Shown here: positions 1-57,866 of the stretch, piece by piece
How the letters are laid out: each line of letters opens with the position of its first letter
Position numbering within the stretch: the stretch's first letter is position 1
Origin: Nemertoderma westbladi
Taxonomy: Eukaryota; Animalia; Xenacoelomorpha
Reading direction: 5' to 3'
Assembly: GCA_032718475.1 (NCBI GenBank)
Contig: JAUCBJ010000160.1
Location: forward strand, 1-64,000
DNA length: 64,000 nucleotides
Made by a program: the position numbers and the translations under genes
Notes under the pieces: model-generated
What the model was told of the DNA's origin: nothing
The model's input: the letters and a program-made list of their open reading frames with translations, nothing else
The model's database searches: none

Positions 1-2495
1 TACGTGATTATTTCGAACTTATGCAATTTATATTATTCTGAACTTATGCAATTTATATTGTTCCGAATATTATGCAATTTATATCTTATAAGCAGTATTT
101 GTACCTAAAGAGAAAGTTTTATAGACAGAAAAATTTGTGCTCAGAAAGACTCATATTTGTAATTATTCCAAAACTTATGCAATCTACATTTAGGTACGAA
201 AGTATTTGTAATTACTTGAATTTATGCAATATTTGAGATACAATAGTAGATGGAAGACTTGCGAGCCTTTCTTATTGTTTTCATTTATTTGTATTTGTAA
301 TTGTTTGAATTTATGCAATATCTGAGATGCAATAGATTTATATTGGTGAATTTAATTTAGATTTATATTGTACTTACTTAGTAAAGCCATAAATACGTAA
401 AGTTTGAATTTGTAATTATTTTTGTATCGAATCATTACGTAAAAAGGAAGTATTGTTTGAAATTTAATTGTAAATATGTAAGTACGCCCTAAGTATTCCA
501 TAGTTTGATTGATTATTGGTGAAAACCGTATATTTTATGCACGATAATATCCTGTTTTCATGGAGCGGTATAGAATTATATTCCCTAAATGCCGTGGATT
601 TTCAAAATTTTATTTTATTCGAATTAACTTTGTAAAGATTGCTTTGAGTTCTCATTAGTATTGGTTCTATCTATCGTGTATCTATCGGTCAAGTGGTTCA
701 GTAGCTCAGTTGGTAGAGCGTTGGAAATTATATGTGTAGTAGGTATCGAGTTCGAATCCTAGTAAGTGCGAATTATTTTTTGTGCAGAATTTCAACTCAT
801 TTAAATTAACCGCTACAAATTAATTGCATTTGTCTGTACCAATAAGGCTGTAGTTATTTGATTGTAACCAATGTCGTGCAAGTTATATATTAGCTGGACC
901 AATAAGCTATCTTTAAAACCTTGTTAGAATCTATAGAACAATCGAGAATTTTCTCGATTGATTGCGGCACAAATTTGGTATAAAAAGGTGCGATTTCGTT
1001 CATTAATCTAATCTCTACTTACACTACTACTACTTTAGTATTCACTTTATTATCTTATCAATATTCTGTCGTGCTTAGTTTATTCTCAGATTACATTGTA
1101 TTATAATTGTATCTTCTGTAATAAAGTCAGAATATTCTCTCAGCTTTTCTGTTTTACTATGAATTCACTACGGTGAACAAACTCAGGGACAGGATGGCCG
1201 GCTAGAGATCGGGCCGCAGCAATGAACGGGAACATCACGGGAATGTAGACGAGAGACAACCCGCAATACCATTTAAAGTTATTCGCCCATCGCCTGAAAG
1301 GTTAGACAGCGTTCGATCCTTGCTACCTAAGTATAAGACCAAAAGATCAAAGGTAGACGTAGTGACACGCTGCAAGCCTAAAATTACATCATAGGGACTG
1401 TACTGTCTTGATTCAGGGAAAACCGCAGTAGACCTTCATATTCCTACGGGGGGGAGGGAGAGAGAGCAGATACTAGTACGCAGATAGGACGTAGGCACAC
1501 CGGTACAAGGCATACACATTGGTTAGGGTGCAGCGAACTGTACGCTTAACTCTTGCTAAGTACAGGTGTGTGTGCGACTATTTACCGTACAACGGTGTCC
1601 GTTACATCAGAACTTGTAGGCTAGGGGGGTTGCTGTGTTTTCACCTGAATGGGGATTGTACCGTTCAGGCGGTAGGGCAGTTTACGCTAGGCGCAAATAA
1701 ATTGAGGCTATCAGGGATATACTAACATCTACCGTGTCCCCGCCAACGCCCTAATAGGAAGTTACCTGGACTACCTGGGTGACTAAAATTCTAGATAGGA
1801 GCCAGGATAGCTATTAGTACCCGTACGCCTACAGTAGTAAACTAACACATCTCTTCTTAGTATCAGGGACCTGGTACCTAAAATTGCCGAATTCTGGGCG
1901 TAGTATTAACCTTATGCCTGAATTTGAGTCCTGGAAATACGCAAGAGGGGAAGGAACCTTATCATTCGTGAGTATTGGACCTACAAGTTACAAAATTAGA
2001 ATATTCGTAAAATGCACACCGTACCCAGTAATTATATATGTGAAGGAGCAAAACTGCTTTTGACCGTTCAGAATTACACACGCGCGTTAGAAATTATTTA
2101 CACCTCAAAATATATAAAATTAACTTTCGTCCTTACTGCACTTTGCTCGCTAGTTAGACATCTCCAAATATCTGCCTCTATACCTAGCTAGCGTCCCTTT
2201 GCCCAACCATATAAATCACACCGCGGCAAAGTATACGAGCCCCTTAGTCCGTCAGTGAGTCAGCCTGATTTTAGGATTCGCTGCGCGGGATTTGTTTTAT
2301 CGAAGTTTGTCTGCTCGTAGACTGTTTTCTGCCTCACCGGTTAAAAGAGATCGATACTGCAATATATTCGCTTACTTAGGGTTTACTGTTTTGGTGAGAA
2401 GGTCGGATTTATGATTTGATTTACAAACTTTACAGTAGGATATTGCAGGTATTGTTACCGTCTCTTCCGATAGTAGGAATAGGCGTATCTCTCCA
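1..2495 (+). repeat. 5' LTR (partial)
   Basis: Matches 16613-19106 (offset 16612, then 16611 after a 1-bp indel near 2077). Ends ...TCTCTCCA; identity runs 5 nt further (ATTTA, to 2500). Confidence 0.85.
695..781 (+). promoter_or_regulatory. tRNA-derived Pol III unit in the 5' LTR
   Basis: A box/D-arm TAGCTCAGTTGGTAGAGC (702-719), B box GAGTTCGAATCC (748-759), T6 terminator 776-781. Anticodon, T and acceptor stems do not pair. Confidence 0.7.
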
Positions 2496-2500
2496 ATTTA

Positions 2501-2512
2501 GTAGGAATATGA
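2501..2512 (+). other. Putative non-tRNA (self-priming) primer-binding site
   Basis: GTAGGAATATGA is the exact reverse complement of TCATATTCCTAC at 1436-1447. No TGG-type PBS follows the LTR. Confidence 0.55.
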
Positions 2513-3344
2513 TTATTTTAACATATTTCCTAATTTAGTAGGAATATGTTTTACTGAACTACGGTTCGGTAGGACTAAAGTTATTTGAAAATTTTGTATT
2601 TTGAGGTAAAAATTTGTATTTGATTAGCTAAGTGCTAATTTTTTGAAATAAAAATTTGATTTGAACCGCGTGTAAAATATTTTGGAATTGAATACCGGTG
2701 TTTAAAAGGGTTTAAATACCATATTGTACCGGTACAAAATTTTCGTAAAGTAAAACCTAACTCTTTTGTTTTTCAGGATTCAGAACTCATTTCTAGACTG
2801 TAACGGGAGCAAGACCGTGTTTAGCAAGTTTGGGAGATAGATAACTCAACAACTTTGGTTGGGAAAATCGCGTTTCGTCCGCAACGTTAAAAACGGAAAG
2901 GTTCACGTCCGGTTTGTATCTGGGAATCTGTTTTTCTGGAGAATTATTGGAGTGGGTGAGTTCGAAAAGTTGCATAAATAAGTTAGGCATTACCGTATTA
3001 GTTAAAAATTATTGTGGGTTCCACTGTCTCAAGCATTTATGCATTCCGTATGATTTCTTTGTTCATTGCTGAATTAGTCCGTATTATTGTATTTAATTTA
3101 CCTTTGATAACGCATATCGTTATCCGATTTATTTGTTATAAAATTGGCCGCTAGGCTAATTTTATTATATACTTATTCCGTGACATTTATTTGCTGTAAA
3201 ATTGGCCGTTTAGGCTAATTTTATCCATCTGCTATAAAATCGGCCGGTAGGCTAATTTTATATGACTGTAATTAGTACCGTTTTATACAAATACGGTAAA
3301 CTCGATACTTTGACACTCACTTCACTTGACTTACAACTACTGAA

Positions 3345-6300: not shown

Positions 6301-9300
6301 GGGAGGCGGTAGTAGAAACTCGATCTAACTATACCGACCAGCACATCGTGGCAGAAGGGATCACACTGCCATCCTCCAACCGACAAAAACCCCAGACAAC
6401 ATCCACAAAGACGGCCACTTACGCCACACCGACGGAATCACGACAATTCTCAGACGGTAATAGAGTATCTGCGCCCATTGGGACGAAACAGACGAGACAG
6501 CAACTCAGCGCCGACTTCAACGGCTGCCAATACTGCGAACATTTAGGTAAGCGGTATATTGGTCACAAGTTACGAGGTTGTCGACAATTTCGCGAGTTGA
6601 ACTCAGAAGAACGACGGCTGCAGATACGGCCACTGGACTCTTGTTGGCGGTGTACGCGACACGGACACGTCCGTAAGGATTGCCCAAATACCGACACTTG
6701 TCCATCCTGTGGACGCAACCACGACGGTCTGCTCCACACAGACAGCCACACGCCGACGAAACGCTTCGCCAGGGAACACCCGGAAGCAGCAGCGAGATGT
6801 GATGCGGCTTACCGAAAACGAGAATCGAAAACGACTCCGACTTTCGTGACCCATATAGAGGATTGCTTTTCAGAACAATCCGGATCGTCGGACGAAGAAT
6901 CAGACGACGACGAATATTCTAATGGAGACGAACAACCGTCAATCGCGCTCCTGACCACTGACCAACTGAAGGGATTCAGTGTAATCCCGATTAAAGTTAC
7001 TGGCACAAAAGGGAGTAAGAGGATTTACGCGATTCTAGACTCAGCCTCATCTCACAGTTACGTGGATGAAAAGATAGCTGACGTCGTAACGGATCTCAGA
7101 CAAGGTAAACACGTAAGTTATACAGTAAGTAGTATGCATGGCCAGCGTGCAATACCAGTGACACGAGTTAAGTTGGACTTAGACTCTCTTCTTCCAAAAT
7201 CGCAACACAGCGAGAGGGAGAGATCTTTGTTACCCTTTAGAGATCTAACCTTTGCGGCCACGAAGGACTTTAGTAACCTACTAGGTCCAGTGCCGGAACA
7301 ATCTCTGGAGGACCGTAAGTATTTCAGACACCTTGGTGTACCCGAATGTCCTGTCAATTATAGATCAGTAGCAATGCTGATCGGGACGGACCAATTCAAC
7401 CTACATCAGGTGTGGGAAACCAGACCATCGGCAGTTGTAGCAGGAAACGCATACGCCTGCAGAACGCCGATAGGGTGGTATACACGAGCGCCTGTGCGCA
7501 CACTAGACGTAAGTGACGAGGAAGACGATGTACAGAGTACATGTAGTTTATTAACTACAAATTCAATTCATTCCTTTTCACACGACGTGAACCATACTAC
7601 GCTACAGTCGACAAAACATGACAGACGTGTAACTAGTATGATAAGTCACAAGGAGCAGCTAATCCACAAGGTGAGTTTAGAACTTGGGGAGAAGACGAGT
7701 CAGCTAGAGATTCCATCGACGACAGATGATAGGCTTGCGAGTCTACCTACCCCAATAACCTCAACAGTGCCCATCGATATCGACGATGACGCGTTGAAAA
7801 TTCATCAGTTGGAACAAGCCGCCTTGGACAAAGAATTAACGGAGAAGACTATCAGGTGGTTAGAACAAGATACGGCTGAACCTGGTAGCTACGACCCTTG
7901 TATGTCGGAACAGGAGAAACAATCTCTAAAGATCATGGAGGATACTATCCGACAGACGGAGGACGGACATTACGAGGTGGGGATGTTATGGCGTAGCCAA
8001 AGTCCTAAACTTATAAATAACTACCCACTGGCTTTAAGACGTCTACACTCAATCCGACAACGTCTATTAAAGGACGAGAAAGCCCATCTGCAGTATAACA
8101 CTCAGATGGAGACGTATTTGACGAAGGGATACGCTATCAGAATGACTAACCCGGAGCGAGTGACCGACCAGACATACTACCTGCCACATCACTATGTGAG
8201 ACATCCCGATAAACCAGACAAAGTACGTGTAGTCAATGACTGTGCGGCTCTATTTGAGGGAATGTCCCTCAATAGTGAGTTGATGGATGGACCGAACATG
8301 AATAATTATCTTATGGGGGTGATTATGCGCTTCCGTCAGCGCCAAGTAGCCTTTACTTGTGACGTTGAAGCGATGTTTCACCAAGTAAAAGCGTTAGAGC
8401 GAGACAGAGACAGTTTGCGGTTTCTCTGGTATCCGGAAGGGGACTTAAGTCTACCACCAGCGACTTACCAAATGCAAGTTCGCGTTTTCGGTGCCAGAGA
8501 CAGCCCAAATTGTACGATGTACGCCTTGAAGCAAGCCGCTAGAGATCAGAAACATCTGTATGACCCAGAGATAATTAGAATTGTAGAACGTGACTTTTAC
8601 GTTGACGACGGATTACAGAGTTGCGACACAGTAGAACGTGCTACAACAGTAGCACATCAATTACGGGACTGCTTGGCGAGCGGAGGTTTTAACCTCACCA
8701 AATTCGCCTCAAACAGTGCCGAATTAGTTGACTCATTCGGAACTACTGAGCGTGGAGGTGGTGACATAGACCTAGAGTTCGAACCACTACCGACGACTAA
8801 GGTGTTGGGGCTCTTTTGGGACCCAAACACAGACAACTTTCGAGTGAAGGTGAGACTGGACAGTCAAGGAAACACACTGACCAAGAGATCATGCTTGTCA
8901 AAGTTGAGCCGATTGTTCGACCCGTTAGGATTCATCAGTCCAGTGATACTGCAAGCCCGCATTTATATGCGCAGTATATGGAAGGATGGACTAACGTGGG
9001 ACGAGCCGATCTCATCAGATCAAGTGGACTTATGGAAGACCTGGGAGGCGGAATTGTCTTCGTTAGAGGATTATTCCATACCCAGGGTTTACTTTCCATT
9101 ACAGAGTACATTTCCTGACAACTTGGAACTACACTGTTTTTCCGACGCCAGTGACAACGGGTTTGGTGTGGCAGCGTATTTGCGCAGACAAGTAGAATCA
9201 GACGAGTTCGATGTTTCGCTCATTACTTCCAAGGCTAAGACCATGCCTACTAAGTATATGACGACACCACGAGCCGAGCTACAAGCCGCGACCCTGTCAA

Positions 9301-12002
9301 CCACCATCGTGAACCTCATACAGACAGAACTACAGTCGAGTTTACAGATATTTTATTGGACTGACGCGACGTTGGTTTTATTTTACATAAACAACGACAC
9401 ACTCGAATTCAAGACATTCGTAGCTAACCGTCGCGCAGAGATTCTAGACCGTTCGATAAAAGAGGATTGGCGACATTGTCCCGGACCACAAAACCCAGCT
9501 GATATTGCGTCGCGAGGAATGATGCCTGAGGAATTCTGTAAACCGGAGAACAAAGAGTTTTGGCAACACGGACCCCAGTTCTTGCAGAAATCGACACAAG
9601 ATTGGCCTCCGTTATACGACAACAAGTCCAACACCATTCCTAAGGACGCCGAAATCAAGAAACCAAAAAAGGGGAAGACAAAGAAAAGGACGACGGCGGC
9701 GAAACTAAAGAAAAAACCGAAGGCGAAATGGAAGGATATAACTTCAAAGGTCAAGAGAGGAAGACTTGCGAGCCTTTCTACACCAGACATATCGCCAGAC
9801 GGTCAACCAGACACGTTACTAGACAGTCAACCAGACATTTTGCCAGACATATCACAAAATGTTCCACCAGACGCTAGTAACACACTGACAAACAGTAAAG
9901 CCGCAGTTTCTCTATTGGAGCGGCCTTCTATTGACAAACTACCAGATACGTTACCAGACGTATCGCCAGACACATTACTAGACAGTCGACTAGACATTTT
10001 GTCAGAAACATCACAAAATGTTCTACCGGACATTAGTAATGTATCAACTAACAGTAAAGCCGCAGTTTCCCTATTGGAGCGGCCTTGTATTGACAAACTA
10101 CCAATTTTGACACACTTGAGCAACCATAAGCATGGTGAAACCTCATGTATTGCAGATGTGGGTAGTACCTACGCTAATGTAAATACAGGTGTTACTTTGC
10201 GCTCAAGAGACATACCGAACTTACAACCTATGGTGAGACCTGGGATTAATGTCGGCAGGAAAATAAGTTTACCGAAACCTGCTGACCCCATAGAGTTCAA
10301 ACCACCATTAACGATCGACTTACAAAGTACTGACGATCAAGGTAAGAAGACGAAGAAGGACAAATTACTTGTAGACCCGGACGGATCAACAGTCAACAAG
10401 GGAATACTTACCGGCGGACCCGTGGGCCCTTCTAGTAATTCAAAACCTTCCAAGTTCTCCATTGACTTACCTGATGACGTCACAAATACTTACGTCGACC
10501 GTATCGTAAACTTAACAGACTCTTGGTCAAACGCTTGCCGAAAATTAGCGTGGATTGTACGTTTTGTACAATACGTTAAAGGCAAACGTGACTTTACACG
10601 TCGACTTACATTGGCTGAGATTGACAGGTGTGAGATTAAATTAATTCGCCATTACCAACTGCGATATTTCGCGCGCGAATTCACATCTATACATCAAGGT
10701 CAACCAATCAAGTCGTCACCGATACTGAGTTGGAGTCCGATAATTTATAATGGCTTACTTTGTCATAAATCTCGGCTTCAAAACATTGACTTTAACACAA
10801 ACTTTAGGTACCCAATAATAATACCGCAACATCACGAACTACAACGTGCAATGATACTGGACGCACATTTACATCTGAAACACGCTGGAAGACACCACTG
10901 TCTTTCCTACTTACGTACTAGATTTGTATTAATTAGACCCAGTAAAGCATTAAGTTCAGTGACACGTACGTGTATTATTTGTAAAAAGGTACATTCTAGA
11001 ATAGGTACCCAAGAAATGAGTGAACTACCACAAGCACGACTTCAAGCATTCAGACCACCTTTTACAGAGACTGGAATTGATTGCTTTGGTCCCATACATA
11101 CTAAACGTGGACGTATACTAGTAAAACGCTGGGGACTGATTTTCACATGTATGTCCAGTAGGGCAGTTCACATTGAACGTGTGATGGATCTTTCCACCAA
11201 CGCGTTTATACTAGCACTGCGGCGATTTATCGCTAGACGCGGACTAGTAAAATGCTTGTACTCAGACCAAGGGACAAACTTTGTTGGTGCTCGGAATGAG
11301 ATTGCTAGAGCCTTTAAGAGATTAGATCATGATCAAATCTCGAACGAACTGCAACCTCACAAGATTGTTTGGAAGTTTAATCCTCCAGATAGTCCTTGGA
11401 GAGGCGGAGTCTGGGAGAGATTGATTAGATCTATCAAAACGGCCATGGCAAAGGTCATTCCAGTAAACCACATATTAACAGACGACCAACTGACAACATT
11501 GTTTGTTGAAATCGAGGCAATACTAAATACTAGACCAATAGTATTAGTACCCGATGACAAACAATCTCAGTTCGCTTTAACACCAGCACACCTGCTTATG
11601 CAGGCACCGACCACATTGACGCCGATTTCCATTCCAATGGAAAGCGATAGTTACGTGAGAAAAGCGTGGAAAATCACGCAACTACTGGCTAACAAATTCT
11701 GGGAAATATGGCAAAACCATTATTTGCCCTCTATTTCTGCCAGAACAAACTGGTATAATAACACCCGCGCATTAAAGCCGGGAGATCACGTGCTGTTGGC
11801 AGAAGTGAATCTAAAAAGACGCTTCTGGATAACAGGTGTCATTTTAGCCACACATCCATCTATGGATGGAGTGACAAGAACTGTGACGGTACGAACAATT
11901 GAGGGTCGCACAGTAGACAGACCGACTCAACGTCTCGTACTTCTTGAAGAGACTCGTAACGAGTCTGGAGACTACAAATCTCCACCTAATACTAGTAAAT
12001 AA
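3345..12002 (+). CDS. BEL/Pao Gag-Pol polyprotein (2885 aa)
   Basis: Gag PKFSG..W..F region; knuckles CWRCTRHGHVRKDC and CPSCGRNHDGLLH; protease AILDSASS (D at 7038); RT FYVDD (8598-8609); RNase H ELHCFSDAS/PRAELQAA/WTDA/NPADIASRG; integrase H..H..CIIC, IDCFGP, SDQGTNF, GGVWERLI. No stops. Confidence 0.97.
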   Translation: MSDKQDYTKNTQTDYDSCDGDKSAAEEQQGKTREPTEPTPCASPVHPTGVPDAVVRGDGRTEDFLTVPQPRYRETELVSSAGSTESVVRSVGGYMAHITRSIGEGQRILDGLTAPMSRFEFYTLQVRVQSRVHKSVDNLVGLQDLARQRQDMDTQLRILEKLMITREKLIQFKSTIRQIQQEQADQLLGESVSDELLQPEEEQELYRLDGQLKHLTDHLRMCGEDVGDLETVPEYTRETSFAQIESAPGILNQSLVSIRSEICEGSIVTSEVARQQQQFYRQQHEIEEQAQLLMIQTAVEEEKIRVANVARISHLQEQAELEAAEMERLELDIAQQAATAELAQRTATAELERQTAAAELERQTAAAELERQRVVSEARVEMKTRQIKAQQAIRQAEFEAQQQQTEQREKEVKLRFELEKRARELAETKENLDLLARDRSMRSRDGHDLDQLEVRHRQIQERKKEGSVGAPGRERQLVKDVCQRFPQVTHMFAPVTTKEPVSIAGSSDISPIHGATEHRFVIPDKFTPPRATSSPIPRVKVSNPPITDRSSLLTGPALLTTKQVSPPLTPKPVTHYAYPMTFRPTRPVVSNAVIRPPVQFTSQSTTSRKTCEPTEQRRTVETRPFNQFTSQSTTSRKTCEPTEQRRSVDDVPKRAVRIRTTQRMRARRPPYPDDSSTSSESDYPKREVFRTGAADEYKRERSDNSFADNPPQNTPTQKALQPTDAISTQQFADILRPVVNKLAQIEERLEEVQTDSSRNTEFEHNRHPKAPQRPVPSNPTSYQGKAPRRENINQVTNQGRETLNVAEEIAKFAARQGLPVQQPPKFSGSSKHWHTFVDYIESQIAVCAFTSREKFNYLLQTLSGEPKRLAETFVGVPDAFELAYDRLTSIYGGTVSMARSVIEELCKGGAITKPVDLLKLADEIKNAITTLRSIGQLDYGNTPTVLLKIIGRLHHRLRREWRKVEYQREERGGFLKLEDVYLLISREAVVETRSNYTDQHIVAEGITLPSSNRQKPQTTSTKTATYATPTESRQFSDGNRVSAPIGTKQTRQQLSADFNGCQYCEHLGKRYIGHKLRGCRQFRELNSEERRLQIRPLDSCWRCTRHGHVRKDCPNTDTCPSCGRNHDGLLHTDSHTPTKRFAREHPEAAARCDAAYRKRESKTTPTFVTHIEDCFSEQSGSSDEESDDDEYSNGDEQPSIALLTTDQLKGFSVIPIKVTGTKGSKRIYAILDSASSHSYVDEKIADVVTDLRQGKHVSYTVSSMHGQRAIPVTRVKLDLDSLLPKSQHSERERSLLPFRDLTFAATKDFSNLLGPVPEQSLEDRKYFRHLGVPECPVNYRSVAMLIGTDQFNLHQVWETRPSAVVAGNAYACRTPIGWYTRAPVRTLDVSDEEDDVQSTCSLLTTNSIHSFSHDVNHTTLQSTKHDRRVTSMISHKEQLIHKVSLELGEKTSQLEIPSTTDDRLASLPTPITSTVPIDIDDDALKIHQLEQAALDKELTEKTIRWLEQDTAEPGSYDPCMSEQEKQSLKIMEDTIRQTEDGHYEVGMLWRSQSPKLINNYPLALRRLHSIRQRLLKDEKAHLQYNTQMETYLTKGYAIRMTNPERVTDQTYYLPHHYVRHPDKPDKVRVVNDCAALFEGMSLNSELMDGPNMNNYLMGVIMRFRQRQVAFTCDVEAMFHQVKALERDRDSLRFLWYPEGDLSLPPATYQMQVRVFGARDSPNCTMYALKQAARDQKHLYDPEIIRIVERDFYVDDGLQSCDTVERATTVAHQLRDCLASGGFNLTKFASNSAELVDSFGTTERGGGDIDLEFEPLPTTKVLGLFWDPNTDNFRVKVRLDSQGNTLTKRSCLSKLSRLFDPLGFISPVILQARIYMRSIWKDGLTWDEPISSDQVDLWKTWEAELSSLEDYSIPRVYFPLQSTFPDNLELHCFSDASDNGFGVAAYLRRQVESDEFDVSLITSKAKTMPTKYMTTPRAELQAATLSTTIVNLIQTELQSSLQIFYWTDATLVLFYINNDTLEFKTFVANRRAEILDRSIKEDWRHCPGPQNPADIASRGMMPEEFCKPENKEFWQHGPQFLQKSTQDWPPLYDNKSNTIPKDAEIKKPKKGKTKKRTTAAKLKKKPKAKWKDITSKVKRGRLASLSTPDISPDGQPDTLLDSQPDILPDISQNVPPDASNTLTNSKAAVSLLERPSIDKLPDTLPDVSPDTLLDSRLDILSETSQNVLPDISNVSTNSKAAVSLLERPCIDKLPILTHLSNHKHGETSCIADVGSTYANVNTGVTLRSRDIPNLQPMVRPGINVGRKISLPKPADPIEFKPPLTIDLQSTDDQGKKTKKDKLLVDPDGSTVNKGILTGGPVGPSSNSKPSKFSIDLPDDVTNTYVDRIVNLTDSWSNACRKLAWIVRFVQYVKGKRDFTRRLTLAEIDRCEIKLIRHYQLRYFAREFTSIHQGQPIKSSPILSWSPIIYNGLLCHKSRLQNIDFNTNFRYPIIIPQHHELQRAMILDAHLHLKHAGRHHCLSYLRTRFVLIRPSKALSSVTRTCIICKKVHSRIGTQEMSELPQARLQAFRPPFTETGIDCFGPIHTKRGRILVKRWGLIFTCMSSRAVHIERVMDLSTNAFILALRRFIARRGLVKCLYSDQGTNFVGARNEIARAFKRLDHDQISNELQPHKIVWKFNPPDSPWRGGVWERLIRSIKTAMAKVIPVNHILTDDQLTTLFVEIEAILNTRPIVLVPDDKQSQFALTPAHLLMQAPTTLTPISIPMESDSYVRKAWKITQLLANKFWEIWQNHYLPSISARTNWYNNTRALKPGDHVLLAEVNLKRRFWITGVILATHPSMDGVTRTVTVRTIEGRTVDRPTQRLVLLEETRNESGDYKSPPNTSK

Positions 12003-12665
12003 TTAGGAGTTTACAAATAGATTTCCACGTACCTGTACACCGTAGTAAGGACAGCGGTAGAATTCCATTGTCTTTATATGTGAACATTGAGGGTAGTACC
12101 CTTATGTGTCACATAGGAGCGGGATTTGTAGGTATAAGAAATGGAATTCTACTTGGAACTCACAATATTGAGACATTTTCGAAATTTTAGACAATCCATT
12201 TGGATTTGAAAAATTTTTAAAATTTTCTCCAGTGAATAGATTTCAGGGTACAGTCGGGTGGAACTTAAAATTAGAGAAACAAGAGAGGAAGACTTGCGAG
12301 CCTTTCTTAAAATTTTTAATTAAATTTTACACGGTCTTGTTTCAATAAGTTACGTCAAAATAGACTCCCCTATATTTATTACTAATTCTTGACTGCTTAT
12401 TTTCTGATAATAGTTTGGGATCAAAAGGTGAGTATTTTAGACTCACGGCCAGTTTAGCCCAAATTCGTTTTTACTTCGGCAAAAAAAAAATTTTAGATAA
12501 GAAGCAGCGTGTCATTAAAGAAACCCTAGATCTTAGGCTATGGGTAGGAGGTTAGAGCGTTGTCGAGCCAAAAGGGCAGACGAAACTCTCACGTCTCCTC
12601 ACAACTAACTACAAACTCTGTTGTATTCCCTCTAGTAGTAATGATTATGTAACTACACCCTAATT

Positions 12666-15600
12666 ATGGAGAAAGGGATACAAGGAGAGCCGAGATGGGG
12701 ATATGATATCCAAGAGGAGGCAGCAGCGCCATTCGAAAGATTTGGAGCCAAGGATTACACTATATTTGGTATAAAAGAATTATCGGAAAGTACAGCGAAA
12801 CTCGCGAGAACTAAATATGACTCGAATGTATTAAAGAGAAGGCAAAACGCATTAAACGAAAGAATCGAAAGTTTGCGCCAAACCTTCAACGAACTTTACC
12901 CGTACGATGCTTTGTGTGATACGGGAGACATTAGCGAAGACCCCGATACTGAAATTAGTCGTTTGTATCATACCATGCAATACCTAAAGGCGCACGAACC
13001 TATGCCTGCGGTACGCGATGAATTCGATGGAATGCATCTTTACAGACGAACTCGAGGGGACGATAGAGAAACCAAGGAAGCATTTTCAGTTTATAAACTT
13101 TATTATCAATGCGGTTCTTGTATGCGTGAACAACGAAATGCGATTCCGATGCGTTTGAATAAGGAAAATCCCGAACCGATATTGGCGAGATGTTCGAATC
13201 ATCAACAACTACGCTACCAGGAAGGAGGGTATCCTTTATCGAATCCATATCATTCATTTGCTATGACCGGACCAAAGGCGGGAGAAACTGTCATTTACCC
13301 ACCTAAGGTTGTTGAACCCGATGTATTTGAACTTACGCTGGACGAGGCGAATCAGTCAACCCGCGAAAAGAAAGAAGCTCTTAGCCTATACAGAGCCTAC
13401 AAGGCTTTCGAGAAAGGTGAGATGGAAGAATGGGGTGGAAGACTCGCGAGCCTACCTTGCCATTGGACGTCACACGATCAAACTTCAGCTAAGGAGATGA
13501 CACCGGAAGTTTTCGAGAGCATAAACTTCGCTCAAAACGTTATTCAGAGACTACAGATTGCATCCCCGGAGAGGCCAAGAGAAATGCAACCGTATAGTAC
13601 TGCAGCTACGAAACCATTGAGTACGACACTCAACTTTCCTATTAGTATACCAGTCCGACAGGATACGACGTACGAAATACCCATCGTGGATCATCCAGAA
13701 ATCATTTCAAACTTGGAGTTTCTTCCTGCAGTTGTTTTCAGCGATATGAGTAAGATATGTGATTTACGTAGACATATTACTCAAAAGGTCGTGAACAACG
13801 TTCCACCTCATATCCAAGATTTTAAGGAACTGGATAGAGCTGGTGCCGATATAGCTCCGAGTAATCTGAAAGGATATCTAACCAAGACGATTCGTTTATG
13901 GATTGGAATCGGAACCTTCGAGTCGGATACAGATATTGCCGCAGATTGGCGAGGTAAGGTTATTCGTTTCGATGAGGATAAGGATATAGAGAAGATTTGG
14001 CAACCTTCGGAAGAATTGTTGGATGAATGGACTAGGACGTTTAGATCGTTTCAGGAAAACGGTTATATGTTTTACGATAACGAGGGCGGCAGTCATCAGC
14101 AGAGTTTGACTTCTAAGACTATACAGATTAGAGCGGCGGACGGAGTCCTGCACGTTTTCAGTAGACAGAGGAGCGACAAACGAATGCCGATACCTCCAGC
14201 GAATACAAAGCGACACCATCTTATCACCGATATAGTAAAGAAGATGGACCAAGCTTGTAATATTGACGCTAGAATGCTACCGAAGATGGTAAGAAACATG
14301 ATTTTAGATAAAACTGTTGTAAAGGTTGGATCAGGAGTAAGGGAGGATTTAATTAGCGACTTCGCCGGCATGACGGACAGCGATGACCGACTACCGACAC
14401 CATACGTCGACACCCGACCTCTTATTCTGTGGTCTATAGAACAGGGATATTTTCGTGAGTATAATACTCAGAAGACTGGAACTGGATACATTTCCTACCT
14501 GTTATTCAATTGGGATTATAAGGAAGGTAAAAGAAACAAGTATATTGAAACTTATGGAGAAGGTGATACTCCAGATATGAGTGAGTTTGAATCACAGCTT
14601 AAATGGAGAGGATGCGTGTATTGGGCTATTACGTCACCTCCAAGAGCGGTCTTACAATATTATTTAGCAATAGAGTCGTCAGTGAATGTTTGCCTAATCG
14701 CCGACATTGTGTCTCGGACTCTCAAAAGACATCCACTTTGTCTCGGAGAAGATCATACGTTCTACATGGAAGGGAGAATTCGTACCGACGTGTTTAGACG
14801 ATTCCTTGAACCCTTCTACAACTCCGACGCTCAGTGTAATGCCTTTACTCGAGCAGGATTTAGTATATTTCGAGACGTGTATCTTCGCTGTGCGGGATCT
14901 CTTATCGAAAGACCATCTATGTTTACATTGTTACCCTATGAAGGAGAACGTATCGTGGAGATTATGGATGAATCACGGCAGACGCGCGCGTCTATCGGTC
15001 ACCTCGGTGATGATTTCAACGTAACTACTACGATCGCCGACGATCCTTTAGAGGAACTTCTTGAGATTGAAAGGAACCTCCCGAAGAAATCTCAGACGGA
15101 GATTCGACAACTTGAAGCAACAGATGCTATAGTTTGCCTACAACCTTCAGAAACCTACCAACCCATAGACCCAGATGATTACGATTATAGTGTGGGAGGA
15201 AGCGCTCGACCGATTGGAGATCTTATATACGAACGAGTGTGGTACCCTGCTAATACGATGTGTAGTAAATGTGGCGTCGCTGGACATCATATGGCAAAGT
15301 GCAGTGGAAAGCACATTACTACGACTCAGCTAATCTGTGGATGGTGTGGGGATCAAGGGTCTCATACCTTTTATACTTGCTGGAGATTTATGGCTCAGTG
15401 TACTTACTGCAATATAAAGGGACATCGAGCATCTGAATGCCAACTAAGAGACATACCTTATGAACACGAATCTGTAAAACTCGTGAGGAAGTTATTTGAT
15501 GAGTGGGAAGATTTGGCCGACGAACATGTATCGGCACAGAGAAGACGGTTTCCGATGAGAGCGCATCTCGGATTTTGGGCGGTAAATCCCCAGACGATGA

Positions 15601-16391
15601 TGTCGGAAGGATATATCTCCGCTATGCCCCAATATGACGAACTTATCGAGGTTGTTGATATTTTGCCCCACGACAGCGGATTCCGAGTGGTGCGCGAGTA
15701 TCTGTTACAGATTCACCCGGATAACAAAAACACGTGGAATTTTCAGAAAGTCGTAAATCGTATCACGTATGGTGAATTTGATCGTTTCCGAACCGAAAAG
15801 CGGAATAAAGGAGCTTGGTTAACCGTCGCATGGGCGTACCGAGCCGCGTTTTACCATAAACGTATACGAGCGAGCGTATTCGAGGAAGAAGAGGTCCTAG
15901 AGGCGACGAATATATCAGCCACTCCGGTTGCGCCGTCTGCACGTCACCCTCGGGAGGACGGACAGGGTAGGATCATACGGGTCCAGAAAGTGGGCCAACA
16001 ATTGAAGAAAATTATTAATGTGGAAGAACGCAAGGGAGTTGAGCCGACTATTCGAGTTACTCGGGATACGGTATCACTTCCAAGAGAACCGGTAGGAGGA
16101 TCGGGACATACACCAGCTGATCAACAGGGGGCGCAAGCTACTCTTGGGTCTGCGTCGTCCGCTTCTCACGCGTTCCCAGACGTTCTACCGACTGTAGTGA
16201 CGACTGATCGGTCACGAGGAATTGGTCGAGGTTTTGGGATGCCAAATAGACGAATTTGTGAGGAAATAGTCGCACCGTCTCTTAACGTCCCAAGTAAACC
16301 AGTGACTCGCCCCACAAGTCCCATATCGCGAGCAAAGTCACCTGTGCGCAGTTTTCGAGGACGCGGCAGGGCTCGATCCACTAAGCGATAA
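12666..16391 (+). CDS. Retrotransposon ORF2: DEDDy-like (RNase D/WRN-exo family) 3'-5' exonuclease domain plus 3 CCHC zinc knuckles
   Basis: ExoI FYDNEG (D471,E473); ExoII ILDKTVVKVGSGVRED (D561); YVDT; ExoIII-like W...QYYLAIE (Y666,E670). Knuckles CSKCGVAGHHMAKC, CGWCGDQGSHTFYTC, CTYCNIKGHRASEC at 15261-15440. Confidence 0.8.
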   Translation: MEKGIQGEPRWGYDIQEEAAAPFERFGAKDYTIFGIKELSESTAKLARTKYDSNVLKRRQNALNERIESLRQTFNELYPYDALCDTGDISEDPDTEISRLYHTMQYLKAHEPMPAVRDEFDGMHLYRRTRGDDRETKEAFSVYKLYYQCGSCMREQRNAIPMRLNKENPEPILARCSNHQQLRYQEGGYPLSNPYHSFAMTGPKAGETVIYPPKVVEPDVFELTLDEANQSTREKKEALSLYRAYKAFEKGEMEEWGGRLASLPCHWTSHDQTSAKEMTPEVFESINFAQNVIQRLQIASPERPREMQPYSTAATKPLSTTLNFPISIPVRQDTTYEIPIVDHPEIISNLEFLPAVVFSDMSKICDLRRHITQKVVNNVPPHIQDFKELDRAGADIAPSNLKGYLTKTIRLWIGIGTFESDTDIAADWRGKVIRFDEDKDIEKIWQPSEELLDEWTRTFRSFQENGYMFYDNEGGSHQQSLTSKTIQIRAADGVLHVFSRQRSDKRMPIPPANTKRHHLITDIVKKMDQACNIDARMLPKMVRNMILDKTVVKVGSGVREDLISDFAGMTDSDDRLPTPYVDTRPLILWSIEQGYFREYNTQKTGTGYISYLLFNWDYKEGKRNKYIETYGEGDTPDMSEFESQLKWRGCVYWAITSPPRAVLQYYLAIESSVNVCLIADIVSRTLKRHPLCLGEDHTFYMEGRIRTDVFRRFLEPFYNSDAQCNAFTRAGFSIFRDVYLRCAGSLIERPSMFTLLPYEGERIVEIMDESRQTRASIGHLGDDFNVTTTIADDPLEELLEIERNLPKKSQTEIRQLEATDAIVCLQPSETYQPIDPDDYDYSVGGSARPIGDLIYERVWYPANTMCSKCGVAGHHMAKCSGKHITTTQLICGWCGDQGSHTFYTCWRFMAQCTYCNIKGHRASECQLRDIPYEHESVKLVRKLFDEWEDLADEHVSAQRRRFPMRAHLGFWAVNPQTMMSEGYISAMPQYDELIEVVDILPHDSGFRVVREYLLQIHPDNKNTWNFQKVVNRITYGEFDRFRTEKRNKGAWLTVAWAYRAAFYHKRIRASVFEEEEVLEATNISATPVAPSARHPREDGQGRIIRVQKVGQQLKKIINVEERKGVEPTIRVTRDTVSLPREPVGGSGHTPADQQGAQATLGSASSASHAFPDVLPTVVTTDRSRGIGRGFGMPNRRICEEIVAPSLNVPSKPVTRPTSPISRAKSPVRSFRGRGRARSTKR

Positions 16392-16406
16392 AAGGGAGGG
16401 CAAGGG
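16390..16406 (+). other. Polypurine tract candidate
   Basis: AAAAGGGAGGGCAAGGG at the ORF2 stop, directly before TG at 16407. Confidence 0.6.
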
Positions 16407-19106
16407 TGGACGGAAGACTCGTGGGCCTTTCTTATGATTTGTGATTTATTTCGAATTATATGTTTTATATTTAGAAAATTTAGTAAACTTATATTTTATA
16501 TTTGTGCTTATTTCGAACTTATGCAATTTGTATTGTTCCGAATTTATGAAATTTAGAAATAAGAACTCATATTTAGTAAACTTATATTTAGTAAGAATTT
16601 ATATTTTATATTTACGTGATTATTTCGAACTTATGCAATTTATATTATTCTGAACTTATGCAATTTATATTGTTCCGAATATTATGCAATTTATATCTTA
16701 TAAGCAGTATTTGTACCTAAAGAGAAAGTTTTATAGACAGAAAAATTTGTGCTCAGAAAGACTCATATTTGTAATTATTCCAAAACTTATGCAATCTACA
16801 TTTAGGTACGAAAGTATTTGTAATTACTTGAATTTATGCAATATTTGAGATACAATAGTAGATGGAAGACTTGCGAGCCTTTCTTATTGTTTTCATTTAT
16901 TTGTATTTGTAATTGTTTGAATTTATGCAATATCTGAGATGCAATAGATTTATATTGGTGAATTTAATTTAGATTTATATTGTACTTACTTAGTAAAGCC
17001 ATAAATACGTAAAGTTTGAATTTGTAATTATTTTTGTATCGAATCATTACGTAAAAAGGAAGTATTGTTTGAAATTTAATTGTAAATATGTAAGTACGCC
17101 CTAAGTATTCCATAGTTTGATTGATTATTGGTGAAAACCGTATATTTTATGCACGATAATATCCTGTTTTCATGGAGCGGTATAGAATTATATTCCCTAA
17201 ATGCCGTGGATTTTCAAAATTTTATTTTATTCGAATTAACTTTGTAAAGATTGCTTTGAGTTCTCATTAGTATTGGTTCTATCTATCGTGTATCTATCGG
17301 TCAAGTGGTTCAGTAGCTCAGTTGGTAGAGCGTTGGAAATTATATGTGTAGTAGGTATCGAGTTCGAATCCTAGTAAGTGCGAATTATTTTTTGTGCAGA
17401 ATTTCAACTCATTTAAATTAACCGCTACAAATTAATTGCATTTGTCTGTACCAATAAGGCTGTAGTTATTTGATTGTAACCAATGTCGTGCAAGTTATAT
17501 ATTAGCTGGACCAATAAGCTATCTTTAAAACCTTGTTAGAATCTATAGAACAATCGAGAATTTTCTCGATTGATTGCGGCACAAATTTGGTATAAAAAGG
17601 TGCGATTTCGTTCATTAATCTAATCTCTACTTACACTACTACTACTTTAGTATTCACTTTATTATCTTATCAATATTCTGTCGTGCTTAGTTTATTCTCA
17701 GATTACATTGTATTATAATTGTATCTTCTGTAATAAAGTCAGAATATTCTCTCAGCTTTTCTGTTTTACTATGAATTCACTACGGTGAACAAACTCAGGG
17801 ACAGGATGGCCGGCTAGAGATCGGGCCGCAGCAATGAACGGGAACATCACGGGAATGTAGACGAGAGACAACCCGCAATACCATTTAAAGTTATTCGCCC
17901 ATCGCCTGAAAGGTTAGACAGCGTTCGATCCTTGCTACCTAAGTATAAGACCAAAAGATCAAAGGTAGACGTAGTGACACGCTGCAAGCCTAAAATTACA
18001 TCATAGGGACTGTACTGTCTTGATTCAGGGAAAACCGCAGTAGACCTTCATATTCCTACGGGGGGGAGGGAGAGAGAGCAGATACTAGTACGCAGATAGG
18101 ACGTAGGCACACCGGTACAAGGCATACACATTGGTTAGGGTGCAGCGAACTGTACGCTTAACTCTTGCTAAGTACAGGTGTGTGTGCGACTATTTACCGT
18201 ACAACGGTGTCCGTTACATCAGAACTTGTAGGCTAGGGGGGTTGCTGTGTTTTCACCTGAATGGGGATTGTACCGTTCAGGCGGTAGGGCAGTTTACGCT
18301 AGGCGCAAATAAATTGAGGCTATCAGGGATATACTAACATCTACCGTGTCCCCGCCAACGCCCTAATAGGAAGTTACCTGGACTACCTGGGTGACTAAAA
18401 TTCTAGATAGGAGCCAGGATAGCTATTAGTACCCGTACGCCTACAGTAGTAAACTAACACATCTCTTCTTAGTATCAGGGACCTGGTACCTAAAATTGCC
18501 GAATTCTGGGCGTAGTATTAACCTTATGCCTGAATTTGAGTCCTGGAAATACGCAAGAGGGGAAGGAACCTTATCATTCGTGAGTATTGGACCTACAAGT
18601 TACAAAATTAGAATATTCGTAAAATGCACACCGTACCCAGTAATTATATATGTGAAGGAGCAAAACTGCTTTTGACCGTTCAGAATTAACACGCGCGTTA
18701 GAAATTATTTACACCTCAAAATATATAAAATTAACTTTCGTCCTTACTGCACTTTGCTCGCTAGTTAGACATCTCCAAATATCTGCCTCTATACCTAGCT
18801 AGCGTCCCTTTGCCCAACCATATAAATCACACCGCGGCAAAGTATACGAGCCCCTTAGTCCGTCAGTGAGTCAGCCTGATTTTAGGATTCGCTGCGCGGG
18901 ATTTGTTTTATCGAAGTTTGTCTGCTCGTAGACTGTTTTCTGCCTCACCGGTTAAAAGAGATCGATACTGCAATATATTCGCTTACTTAGGGTTTACTGT
19001 TTTGGTGAGAAGGTCGGATTTATGATTTGATTTACAAACTTTACAGTAGGATATTGCAGGTATTGTTACCGTCTCTTCCGATAGTAGGAATAGGCGTATC
19101 TCTCCA
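16407..19106 (+). repeat. 3' LTR (~2.7 kb)
   Basis: TGGA...TCCA inverted termini, preceded by a purine tract; near-identical to 1-2495. The left edge is inferred because the 5' copy is cut by the window. Confidence 0.75.
17307..17393 (+). promoter_or_regulatory. tRNA-derived Pol III unit in the 3' LTR
   Basis: Copy of 695-781. Confidence 0.7.
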
Positions 19107-19226
19107 ATTTAATTTATCTCTTTAACTGTGCAACTACTGTGTATATTACTTTACCTGTGTAACAATTTCTCTCTGTATTTTTGTAACTAATTATCTCCTT
19201 ACCTGTGTAACTATATCACTGCTTAC

Positions 19227-19392: not shown

Positions 19393-21526
19393 GACTTAGT
19401 CTGCGTGCTAGCAGAACAACGAAATCTGCCTTGCCGCGGCATGACTGGTCCTCTCTGTTGCAACAGCCAAGTGTGAGATCCAGCTTCACACTACAGCTGA
19501 GCAACAGGTATGAGGCAGATGCGGCAGATCACTGTGAGGGCTATACTGCCTTTACAGAAGCAGTTAAGTTAGCAGCTGCAGAAACAGTTCCTGTATACCC
19601 TCGAAACAGGAAAAGGGCCCCCTGGACTGACAACAAAATTCAGAAGTGCCGAAATGACCTTCATAAGGCGCAGAAAGAGTCCCGACTCAAACAGACTACA
19701 GCGGCCAAGAATGCAGTTAAGGCTGCATCTAGGTCCCTGAACAGGCAGTACTCTGCTAATCTACAGGAGGTAATAAACCAACAGGTTGATGCCATCAATG
19801 ATGCTGACGACAGCAGGCAATCAATGGTTGGAAAGCCCACTTTGAAAAGCTCCTCAATAATGACAGGGTATTGCCTGATAACTTTATAGAAGTAAAAGTG
19901 TCTGAGTCTGTACTCCCAGATATTCCCATTGGCGATGTCTCCTTTGCAGAAGTGAAGGCTGCTGCAAAGAGCATTAAGACCAATCGTGCCAGTGGAGTAG
20001 ATGGTGTTCCCCCTGAGGTCTTTAAAATACTTGAGTGTTTAAAGCTCATCTATCGCATCATAGTAGACATGTACCGAACAACAAGAGTCCCACAAGAAAT
20101 GAAAACAAATAAGTTGGTGCCAGTTCCCAAGAAGGGCAACCTAACACTCTATGGTTCTTTTCGGGGAATCTCATTGATCTCGATTGCTGCAAAGCTATAC
20201 AATAGGATTCTATTAAATCGCATCAGGGATCCCATTGAGAGACTGCTCCGTGGAAATCAGAATGGGTTCCGTAAAGGTCGTGGAACCATGGAGCCCATTT
20301 TGGCACTTAGAAGGATAATTGAAGAGTTATCAAAAAAGAAAGACAGGCATCTGGCTGTTATCTTTGTTGACTTCTTCAAGGCCTTTGATTCAGTCTCTCG
20401 CTCACGTATGTTCAGCATACTTTCATTATATTGGATTCCTGATGAAATTATTGCAGCAATCAGATCAGTATACGATGGTTCGACAACATTTGTGTCTACT
20501 GTTGACGGTGACACAGAACCATTTGAAGTGTTATGGGGCGTCCTCCAGGGAGACACACTTGCACCATTCTTGTTCATTATTGTGGTTGACTATGTTCTAC
20601 GCATGTCCTTAGATCATTATAATGATGATGGGGTGATGATAACTCCACCTAATGGCTCCAGAAGTCGAGGAAATCCTGCCAAGTACCTAACTGATCTAGA
20701 CTTTGCTGATGACTTAGGAGTACTCTCAGAATCATTAGAGGGAGCCCAACGGCTCCTCAGCTCATCAGAACATGCTGCTTCTAGTGTTGGTCTTTTTATT
20801 AACTCTAGAAAGACCAAAATTCTGAAAGTTAACTTTGAAAGTCCTCAGTAAGTCTCTGATCGGATGAGCATAAGCTCAAAGGATGGTATGCTTGAGCATG
20901 TGGACGACTTCTGTTACCTGGGATCATGGATCCGGAAGTCAGGTGAGGACCTTCGAATACGTAAGGGAAAGGCATGGGCAGCCTTGAATAGGCTTTCCAG
21001 GATTTGGAAGTCACCGAGAATTAATCGGAAACTTAAGGTCCGATTATTTAGAGCAGCAGTAGTTCCAGTACTCCTCTACGGGAATCCATGCTGGGCTCTA
21101 ACTGCTGAGGACACCAAATCTCTGGATGGCACATTCACAAGAATGCTACGCCGGGTACATTGTGTCAAGTACAATGCACACATCTCCAACCAGACTCTAT
21201 ATAACATTGGAGGGGTCTCATTGGTTCCCCCAAGCTTGACACTAGAACAAAATCGCCTCCGCTTTGCAGGACATTGCTTTCGCCGTGAGGACCAGCCAGT
21301 GCTTAATCTTGTACTTTGGCAGCCTCATGGAGTGAATAAGCATGGTGGACAGCCCATGACTTTCTTGAGACGCATCTTAAAGGACACTGGCCTTAAAGAT
21401 GCGGATGATCTAGCAAATGTCATGGGTGATAGGGAGTTGTGGCGGTGCAATTTCGTTGACAAGCCGGCACAGCATTCTTAAAAATGCAGCTGCAATGCAG
21501 CATGCCGATCCTAGTAGTAGTAGTAG
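19393..21526 (+). mobile_element. 5'-truncated RTE-like LINE with disrupted RT
   Basis: RT motifs QNGFR, FVDFFKAFDSV, GVLQGDTLAPFLF, LDFADD, RLRFAGH; frameshift near 19830-19870, stop at 20849; (TAG)n tail; 16-bp TSD TATAACATATCAAAAA at 19377-19392 and 21527-21542. Confidence 0.9.
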
Positions 21527-56696: not shown

Positions 56697-57866
56697 CTAG
56701 GATGATGCAGAAGTGCCGGTAGTAGTAGCGGATGTGGTACTCGTATTAGTCGAAGTGGTAGTAGAAGTAGTAGAGGTGGTGGTAGCCGAAGTGACCGCAG
56801 CAATAGCCCGGGCTCTGGCAGTGGCAGAATCTGCTGGGCTCACAATCACGGTTCGTGGTTGGACCGCAATAACAGGAGTAAAGGAAGGCGCAGCTGGCAA
56901 ATACTGCATCGACAAGTTTGTCTGCTGGAGGGCAACGGATGGTGATATGGCAGCTATGTGCATATCGTGCACAGATAATATAATATCATCTGTGGCAGCT
57001 TTGCCACACTTGTACCACCCCGAGATGGTGAAACCCCCTTGCTCATTGATAGCCGTAGCCATTTTAGTTATGTTCTCACGTAGGTTATTGCTATCGAACC
57101 GTGAGCGGGGCAGTGTCAAAGCCTGACTTGACAAAAACAAATTTGTCAAACCCAAGCTCTGCCACAAATCACCATTCTCGAATGGTATCAGATGATCGCT
57201 GGTTAGAGCAACCACCACAGCAGCCAATGCCCATCCTTCTGTAGACACCTTGTCGATGCAGCAGCACTGCATCGTTGCCTTTCTCCTATCACAGAGAAAT
57301 CCGGAGCAGGTAGGTCCCACTATCTGGGGAATGTCAAACCGCAGTTTCTCCCCCACCAGGCGAAAATGGTGGTACGCCATTTCTTCCTTGGAGGACATAT
57401 CTAGAGGCAAAGAGTATAGACACTGACTTTGAACAATAGCAGGAAGTAGTGGAGAATGTGTATTTATAATAGGATTATCCAAAGAGTGGTGGAGGTAATC
57501 TCCTGTAAATATAGGATCACAGATTTGGACCACCCCTCCAAGTTTTACCTCGCGATGGAGAAATAGATTGCGAGAATGGTTAGAATCGCGGGTAAAGATT
57601 GTAAAACATAGGTCTGAATCTAGATCTCCAAGCACTACCTCCCGGTCAAAGGCTCCCTCTTTCTTGGCCTGCTTAGGTGGAGCAGACCCACCACCTCCGA
57701 ACCCTGGCATTCGCCCCACACGTACGTAGGGGAGGAGGCGTTCTACCCGGGCAATCATAAGAATAACTCCCATCAGTACCGTCTGATTAGGAACATACAG
57801 TTTCGATTGGTACCCTTGTACCACTTCTTGTATAGAAACCCGACGCCGATTGTTTATTCGATCCAT
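56697..57866 (-). CDS. Uncharacterised intronless ORF (~389 aa) with a Cys cluster and Thr-rich tail
   Basis: Long, GC-richer ORF in AT-rich DNA; first ATG at 57866; motifs CSGFLCD....CCC and INEQGGFTISGWYKCG. Confidence 0.75.
   Translation of the reverse strand: MDRINNRRRVSIQEVVQGYQSKLYVPNQTVLMGVILMIARVERLLPYVRVGRMPGFGGGGSAPPKQAKKEGAFDREVVLGDLDSDLCFTIFTRDSNHSRNLFLHREVKLGGVVQICDPIFTGDYLHHSLDNPIINTHSPLLPAIVQSQCLYSLPLDMSSKEEMAYHHFRLVGEKLRFDIPQIVGPTCSGFLCDRRKATMQCCCIDKVSTEGWALAAVVVALTSDHLIPFENGDLWQSLGLTNLFLSSQALTLPRSRFDSNNLRENITKMATAINEQGGFTISGWYKCGKAATDDIILSVHDMHIAAISPSVALQQTNLSMQYLPAAPSFTPVIAVQPRTVIVSPADSATARARAIAAVTSATTTSTTSTTTSTNTSTTSATTTGTSASS

Follow-up and report, generated by a model that had tools for sequence, protein, structure and literature searches.

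A likely exonuclease and zinc-knuckle gene in the env position of a BEL/Pao retrotransposon from Nemertoderma westbladi

The first 64,000 nucleotides of contig JAUCBJ010000160.1 (assembly GCA_032718475.1, Nemertoderma westbladi; this whole stretch is the window, and all positions are counted from its first letter) hold a long terminal repeat (LTR) retrotransposon of the BEL/Pao superfamily, whose second gene, ORF2, is the subject of this work. Two long open reading frames (ORFs), ORF1 and ORF2, are read in the window on the plus strand under the standard code, and they lie between LTRs that align at 99.96% identity over 2500 columns (1-2500 versus 16613-19111; Table 1). The LTRs are therefore at least 2.5 kb long, the 5' LTR extends beyond the left edge of the window and the insertion is very young. 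ORF1 matches the Pfam families DUF1759 (gag, 7e-11), Peptidase_A17 (2.5e-42), Integrase_H2C2 (2e-4) and DUF5641 (1.7e-20), with a weak CCHC match besides, and between its LTRs the host element thus combines a Pao-type aspartic peptidase with a DUF1759 gag and an integrase that ends in DUF5641, as expected of BEL/Pao. ORF2 is a separate ORF 3' of pol (ORF1 stops at 12002) and occupies the whole space from there to a purine-rich tract and the 3' LTR, which is the env position that an earlier, sequence-only reading of the locus had given it. The purine tract, AAAAGGGAGGGCAAGGGTGGACGGAAGA, sits where a polypurine tract is expected and is a candidate primer of the plus strand. With a nearly identical LTR pair, the ORF1 domains, the purine tract and a guanine plus cytosine content like that of ORF1 (0.454 for ORF2 and 0.466 for ORF1, in a window of 0.371), ORF2 is an integral part of the element. 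Public DNA runs of organism A cover it together with the remainder of the element, and no second copy of ORF1 or ORF2 was found within the window.

The sequence-only reading had described ORF2 as an intact frame of 1241 residues (protein P0001) with the exonuclease motifs ExoI, ExoII and ExoIII, the last bearing E for D, then three CCHC knuckles, and without obvious signal peptide or transmembrane segment, and in all of this it was right. The frame is open under the standard code and the motifs and knuckles lie where they had been placed, the three knuckles starting at C866 (CX2CX4HX4C), C891 (CX2CX5HX4C) and C912 (CX2CX4HX4C). The highest 19-residue Kyte-Doolittle mean is 1.38 and the first 25 residues average -1.1, so neither a membrane segment nor a signal peptide is present, and an Env glycoprotein was rejected on that ground. 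Pfam zf-CCHC matches residues 911-926 below threshold (E 0.023), and the best PDB matches of the knuckles, weak as they are, are retroviral nucleocapsid proteins. Recent capture of a gag knuckle was considered for this region and rejected, the best match to ORF1 having an E value of 0.27.

Relatives of the ORF2 protein are few. A phmmer search with residues 1-1150 against 1.84 billion representatives gave two matches, P0003 and P0002, of which P0002 matches the knuckles only; P0003, a singleton of 558 residues, is thus the sole relative found beyond the knuckle-only protein. BLASTP aligns it to ORF2 at 2e-12 with 115 of 489 positions identical (~24%), collinear with residues ~430-1000. Its motifs are canonical (ISVDTES, KAGSDMRQD and YLRGD), its D71-x-E73, D140 and Y247-x3-D251 align to D471/E473, D561 and Y666/E670 of ORF2, and three knuckles and the shared C-terminal module follow the exonuclease motifs in P0003 too. 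The expectation that the acidic residues are conserved among homologues is therefore borne out in P0003, the one homologue found. A word-indexed search of 5.8 billion proteins with ORF2 residues 380-960 scored none of 4657 candidates, the same collection searched with profile A1 returned only P0003, and in metagenome and viral contig scans with profile A1, none of the pattern matches (120 and 135, respectively) was confirmed.

Whether residues ~455-700 of ORF2 form an exonuclease domain was judged by remote homology. Reference sequences were 30 PF01612 domains from 61 Pseudomonadota genomes; an E. coli RNase D query had returned only enterobacterial proteins 88-100% identical to it, a contig scan likewise close relatives, and the diverse 61-genome set was used. 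Against these 30 domains, a profile of P0001 and P0003 reached an hhalign score of 30.4 (P 6.6e-4; P 0.0031 with other settings), a score attained by none of 150 column shuffles (mean 13.3, standard deviation 2.5, maximum 21.6). The register of this alignment sets ExoI and ExoII on the DTE and K..H..r.D of the reference domains, while ExoIII (Y666-x3-E670; Y247-x3-D251 in P0003) meets their YAAaD only in an extended, low-confidence part. A hidden Markov model (HMM) of the pair, run over 180 frames (stop-to-stop, at least 150 residues, from the 30 PF01612 loci, 30 of them positives), gave the first 8 places, and 13 of the first 20, to PF01612 proteins (Mann-Whitney P 1.2e-7). NCBIfam offers a single match for the exonuclease segment, DNA polymerase III epsilon, at the ExoI end (E 0.028, residues 467-531 against profile positions 4-67). 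For an exonuclease-only profile, EXD2 comes first among 177,635 PDB sequences, its alignment falling at ExoII (E 1.1). In the ESM Atlas, PF01612 is found in 24 of the 30 clusters nearest to ORF2 residues 380-740 (score 0.93), and the top feature neighbour of P0003, which the Atlas contains, is a Euglenozoa cluster with PF01612 and zf-CCHC (score 0.87); by the tool's own note, scores of 0.87-0.94 also arise for 4-10% of shuffled proteins. All 10 structure rows for the Atlas model of P0003 (low in confidence, with a predicted local distance difference test score, pLDDT, of 0.44) carry PF01612, with template modelling scores of 0.73 and 0.70 to models of stand-alone exonucleases of 210-212 residues.

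A number of results weigh against this reading, beginning with the shuffle rate of the ESM scores and the low confidence of the Atlas model. With one homologue in hand, 'conserved' means two sequences out of two, and ORF2 itself has E670 where D is usual. Pfam PF01612 (cut-off 23.6 bits) matches neither ORF2, nor its residues 427-705, nor P0003, even at E<=10, and hmmsearch with our own 30-domain PF01612 HMM gives ~0-1 bits. The hhalign probability of the pair profile match is only 27%; with P0003 alone 14 of 60 shuffles reach the score, and P0001 alone aligns at ExoII only (score 22.9, reached by 0 of 37 shuffles). A three-block position-specific scoring matrix (PSSM) of the motifs is not significant: among 500 shuffles of each protein, 197 score at least as high as P0001 and 73 at least as high as P0003. 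AlphaFold2 gave no readable fold, with a pLDDT of 30.1 for residues 361-745 as a single sequence and 30.6 for residues 445-705 together with P0003; bacterial DEDDy rows were left out of that alignment because the test would have turned circular. The DnaQ-like fold that the sequence-only reading looked to AlphaFold for could, accordingly, not be predicted for ORF2 itself. A PHROGs scan gave nothing relevant, and nucleocapsid knuckles, with E above 0.5, were all that PDB searches with profile A1 and with the whole of ORF2 returned.

As bare motifs, then, the ORF2 motifs are by these sequence comparisons no more than chance would provide; as a profile they go beyond chance. No single result is significant by database standards, yet the weak signals all converge on a single superfamily and on its correct sub-regions, and we regard it as very probable that residues ~455-700 are a DnaQ-like domain. 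A DEDDy-like exonuclease followed by CCHC knuckles is the best reading of ORF2, resting as it does on weak but converging remote homology. The identity first proposed from the letters thus gains from the profile results and the knuckles, and does not gain from Pfam, where PF01612 is missing, or from a fold model.

The way in which copies of ORF2 vary bears on whether the gene is used. The family is very abundant in organism A, with many diverged copies: in run X1, 18,061 contigs match the element, 6459 of them at 99+% identity, 6654 at 95-99%, 3927 at 90-95% and 1021 at under 90%. Across three runs, 61 variant sites were found in ORF2 at min_share 30, and the best-supported 40 of these 61 were analysed; they fall on codon positions 1, 2 and 3 in the numbers 8, 6 and 26 (binomial P 4e-5), and 25 of the 40 are synonymous where 13.0 are expected under the same mutation spectrum, a count reached in 1 of 2000 simulations. 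Close to the motifs are found V554I and, in the codon for A668, a synonymous substitution, and no insertion or deletion inside ORF2 is among the variants listed at min_share 30. Among the sites listed for ORF1, 18 of 27 are at third positions by hand count. Because the variation is mostly synonymous and at third positions, ORF2 has evolved under purifying selection, as ORF1 appears to have done. Deletion copies also exist, running from 12799 or 12805 to 14838 (with 9-15 filler letters; X1 and X2) and from 12825 to 14950 (X3). All are out of frame and remove residues ~47-760 of ORF2, so that the exonuclease-like domain is lost entirely and the N-terminal region for the most part. ORF2 is therefore not needed in cis by every copy, a point against the overall reading of the gene.

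Predicted splice signals suggest how ORF2 is expressed. Readthrough from ORF1 or fusion with it is excluded by the more than 20 in-frame stops between the two ORFs. A predicted donor lies in the leader ahead of ORF1, and at the other end a CTAAC stands 27 nt before the acceptor, whose TAG/T junction precedes the ATG of ORF2 by 30 nt. The joint 2955/12636, which leaves out 9680 nt bounded by GT..AG, occurs in a single contig of run X2 (depth 211): the loose end of this contig at 12635 carries 29 letters identical to window 2926-2954, and this 29-mer is unique in the window. An unspliced ORF2 contig has a depth of 290 in the same run. ORF2 is probably translated from a spliced subgenomic RNA, with an intron at 2956-12635 and the layout of a retroviral env messenger RNA (mRNA). 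Several facts weaken the case for such an RNA. The joint is supported by one contig of one run labelled 'DNA?', with a short side of 29 letters that falls below the guideline of 30-31; it is absent among the joints listed for X1, X3 and X5, and none of the public runs with the gene is on record as RNA. Run X5 (organism B), whose label 'RNA?' is a guess, has contigs 95-99% identical over parts of the element, and one X5 contig crosses 12377-12673 unspliced; neither observation is usable as evidence of transcription. Should run X2 be DNA, the joint would mean that the spliced RNA had been reverse-transcribed and inserted, leaving ORF2-only copies in the genome.

Table 1. Features of the BEL/Pao element and of ORF2, in window positions
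Feature	Position	Strand	Basis or remark
5' LTR	1..2500	+	start lies left of the window; pairs with 16613-19111
Predicted splice donor GTGAGT	2956..2961	+	leader exon ends at 2955; context GG/GTGAGT
ORF1, gag-pol polyprotein of BEL/Pao, 2885 aa	3345..12002	+	Pfam domains
Predicted branch point CTAAC (12605-12609), pyrimidine tract and TAG acceptor	12605..12635	+	exon 2 from 12636
Upstream ORF of three codons, ATG ATT ATG TAA	12641..12652	+	between acceptor and ORF2 start
ORF2, 1241 aa (P0001), accessory gene in env position	12666..16391	+	open for 1241 codons; stop at 16389-16391
ORF2 N-terminal region, aa 1-440	12666..13985	+	no Pfam family; absent from P0003
Likely DEDDy-type 3'-5' exonuclease domain, aa ~455-700	14028..14765	+	remote-homology results
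ExoI, D471-N-E473	14076..14084	+	motif read in ORF2
ExoII, K553-V-G-S-G-V-R-E-D561	14322..14348	+	motif read in ORF2
ExoIII, Y666-L-A-I-E670	14661..14675	+	motif read in ORF2
Three CCHC zinc knuckles, aa 866-925	15261..15440	+	regular-expression search; collinear with P0003 knuckles
C-terminal module common to P0003, aa ~931-1010	15456..15695	+	BLASTP and MAFFT alignments
Basic tail rich in Ser/Pro/Gly/Arg, aa 1061-1241, net charge +14	15846..16388	+	composition by segment
Purine-rich tract, candidate polypurine tract	16390..16416	+	directly after ORF2 stop
3' LTR, part aligning to the 5' LTR	16613..19111	+	true start between ~16417 and 16613

The region in which reverse transcription should be primed was looked at as well. 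The 125 nt that follow the LTR contain no TGG, no transfer RNA (tRNA) gene was found in the window, and a tRNA-type primer-binding site is not apparent, in agreement with the sequence-only reading, which had thought its absence alongside ORF2 notable; this co-occurrence is a single case. The first 12 nt past the LTR (2501-2512, GTAGGAATATGA) are the exact reverse complement of LTR positions 1436-1447, and an arm of at least 12 arises in 8 of 300 shuffles. No TATA-like motif or promoter signal is seen before 1436. Retrotransposons of the Tf1 kind prime themselves, and the 12-nt complementarity may be taken as a lead for self-priming here, and as no more than that. Across the boundary between LTR and internal region, TAGTAGGAATA(T/G)G occurs three times (window 2470-2550), and family copies in X1 and X3 skip 36 and 67 nt at the LTR boundary, from 2497 to 2534 and from 2468 to 2536; this interval resembles a short, variable tandem repeat located where a primer-binding site would be expected.

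Some further observations concern ORF1 and the surroundings of the element. ORF1 is unusually long (2885 residues), and its residues 1-825 (window 3345-5820), upstream of DUF1759, are without Pfam family. Its pol part contains an in-frame tandem duplication of 159 nt whose units are 82% identical (9782-10099), near which family copies show skips from 9581 to 9759 and from 9992 to 10029. An ORF of 326 residues matching RVT_1 (2.8e-27) at 19871-20851, 760 nt past the 3' LTR, is a fragment of another retroelement. Two long ORFs, at 60909-63998 (plus strand; 1030 residues, running off the end of the window) and 56697-57872 (minus strand; 391 residues), are without Pfam match and have no similarity to ORF1 or ORF2.

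Captured DEDDy ORFs have precedents in invertebrate retroelements, as the sequence-only reading had rightly noted. A DEDDy ORF3 is known from the bdelloid-rotifer LTR elements Juno and Vesta and from Athena/Terminon retroelements (Rodriguez, Kenefick, Arkhipova 2017, PMC5408684; review PMC6431247), with a DEED variant, a zinc-binding motif in Vesta2/5 and no assay in the available text of PMC5408684, and a DnaQ-like domain is counted among the well-known accessory domains of LTR elements (PMC6338049). Like ORF2, the rotifer ORF3 of Juno, Vesta and Athena lies 3' of pol where env would stand and encodes no glycoprotein, reads as a DnaQ-like exonuclease with one acidic position altered (DEED in rotifers, D-E-D-E in ORF2) and has had the same candidate roles discussed for it. 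Unlike them, ORF2 resides in a BEL/Pao element, and whereas the rotifer ORFs are said to have 'strong homology' to DEDDy enzymes, it is below Pfam detection; its three CCHC knuckles, 440-residue N-terminal extension and conserved C-terminal module also set it apart, to judge by the descriptions. No printed report of a DEDDy accessory ORF in BEL/Pao was found in a search outside which most subscription journals and supplements lie, and in which such accessory genes came up for rotifer elements of other types only.

The closest architectural parallel comes from a cellular enzyme. TbRND, an RNase D-family exoribonuclease of Trypanosoma brucei, joins an Exo domain to four CCHC fingers, whose binding site on single-stranded RNA is 5-9 nt from the 3' end (PMC7797062). 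In both TbRND and ORF2 the exonuclease part (residues ~455-700 in ORF2) is followed by tandem CCHC fingers (residues 866-925), but TbRND is an enzyme of the host mitochondrion, with a linker of 28 residues and four fingers where ORF2 has a spacer of ~160 residues and three knuckles, and it was not among the PDB matches of the ORF2 profiles at E<=10. With cellular PF01612 proteins at large (EXD2, EXD1, Mut-7/Nibbler, WRN-exo and RNase D/Rrp6) ORF2 shares the order ExoI, ExoII, ExoIII (Y-x3-acid), and its ExoII segment resembles that of EXD2 (LP..l..il.D.t..KVG.g..eD). It differs from them in a similarity far below family thresholds, in longer insertions between the motifs and in being a gene of a mobile element; no HRDC domain was found in ORF2 by Pfam. 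BEL/Pao and other LTR elements such as Tas, Cer and roo can carry env-like third ORFs. These lie, as ORF2 does, between pol and the 3' LTR and are served, as is predicted for ORF2, by a spliced subgenomic RNA from which gag-pol is removed, but ORF2 is read as a nuclease with knuckles, without signal peptide or membrane segment, and not as a fusion glycoprotein. ORF2 thus differs from the known DEDDy ORFs in superfamily, in architecture (N-terminal extension, three knuckles, no HRDC) and in degree of divergence.

On balance we put at roughly 0.6 the probability that ORF2 is an accessory gene of an intact BEL/Pao element, kept by purifying selection, that likely encodes a highly diverged DEDDy 3'-5' exonuclease with three CCHC knuckles, a spliced subgenomic RNA being its probable messenger. 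Fold, catalysis and mode of action are what we infer for such a protein. Its knuckles and basic tail would hold single-stranded RNA or DNA a few nucleotides from the 3' end, by analogy with TbRND, and a DEDDy site made of D471, E473, D561, Y666 and E670 would use two metal ions to trim that end. It is conceivable instead that the motifs are chance occurrences in an orphan protein in which the CCHC knuckles alone are real, as the missing Pfam match, two uninformative AlphaFold attempts, the non-significant motif PSSM and E values above 0.01 for each individual database match would have it. This is hard to reconcile with ExoI leading to DNA polymerase III epsilon and ExoII to EXD2, each in its correct sub-region, with a profile score against RNase D-type domains that 0 of 150 shuffles reach, with the top 8 of 180 frames and with the structural neighbours of the P0003 Atlas model, and we consider it very unlikely. 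Neither do we give much credence to a dead DEDDy-like scaffold, in which ORF2 would serve through knuckles and tail as a second, nucleocapsid-like chaperone or packaging factor. Such a non-catalytic RNA-binding protein would account for E670 in place of D, for a domain diverged below Pfam detection and for three nucleocapsid-like knuckles beside a tail with a net charge of +14, and inactive DEDD derivatives that retain RNA binding do exist, EXD1 and Maelstrom being described as such in the available part of PMC5408684. However, four carboxylates and the tyrosine are kept in two proteins that are just 24% identical, a Glu is still able to bind a metal ion, and of the variants close to the motifs, V554I is conservative and the one at A668 synonymous.

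If ORF2 is an active exonuclease, its substrate is the next question. The sequence-only reading had suggested maturation of the self-primer, processing of complementary DNA (cDNA) ends or action against small-RNA silencing as roles that it could have. Our tentative first choice, within the reading of ORF2 as a spliced-RNA-encoded accessory exonuclease, would be the 3' ends of the element's own RNA or cDNA inside the ribonucleoprotein, and the main alternative would be the trimming of host small RNAs. A more far-reaching scenario makes the same protein a counter-defence nuclease that over-trims or degrades the 3' ends of PIWI-interacting RNA (piRNA) or small interfering RNA (siRNA), or double-stranded precursors, and thereby aids copy number. 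The cellular DEDDy relatives Mut-7, Nibbler and EXD1 act in small-RNA pathways, the neighbours of P0003 in the Atlas include an EXD1-like cluster (score 0.80), and arenavirus ExoN has been described as joining in the suppression of host innate immune signalling. A silencing-related role is raised in the available text of PMC5408684, where the rotifer DEDDy ORF is nonetheless without clear link to copy number. The family is very abundant (the 18,061 contigs of X1), but abundance alone is no proof; a factor acting in trans would also explain the persistence of ORF2-deleted copies. Weighing both sides, we find a counter-defence nuclease unlikely. Unlikelier still is the scenario in its fullest form, in which the element has swapped env for a spliced-RNA-encoded exonuclease with knuckles that suppresses host RNA silencing in trans, while its subgenomic RNA is reverse-transcribed into ORF2-only DNA copies. 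A silencing suppressor, if real, would explain both the huge copy number and the survival of copies without ORF2.

The rotifer cases of DEDDy nucleases in retroelements are described without an assay as far as the available text of PMC5408684 goes. This copy of ORF2 offers a useful handle on what such nucleases do: it is intact and very young, belongs to a highly amplified family, is under selection, has a catalytic set that can be mutated and is probably served by a spliced mRNA. ORF2 would extend the DEDDy trait to the BEL/Pao superfamily, and it would point to convergence on the Exo plus CCHC architecture of TbRND. Accessory genes of this kind can escape annotation based on Pfam. Should the nuclease of ORF2 act on host small RNAs, it would be a silencing suppressor encoded by a transposon.

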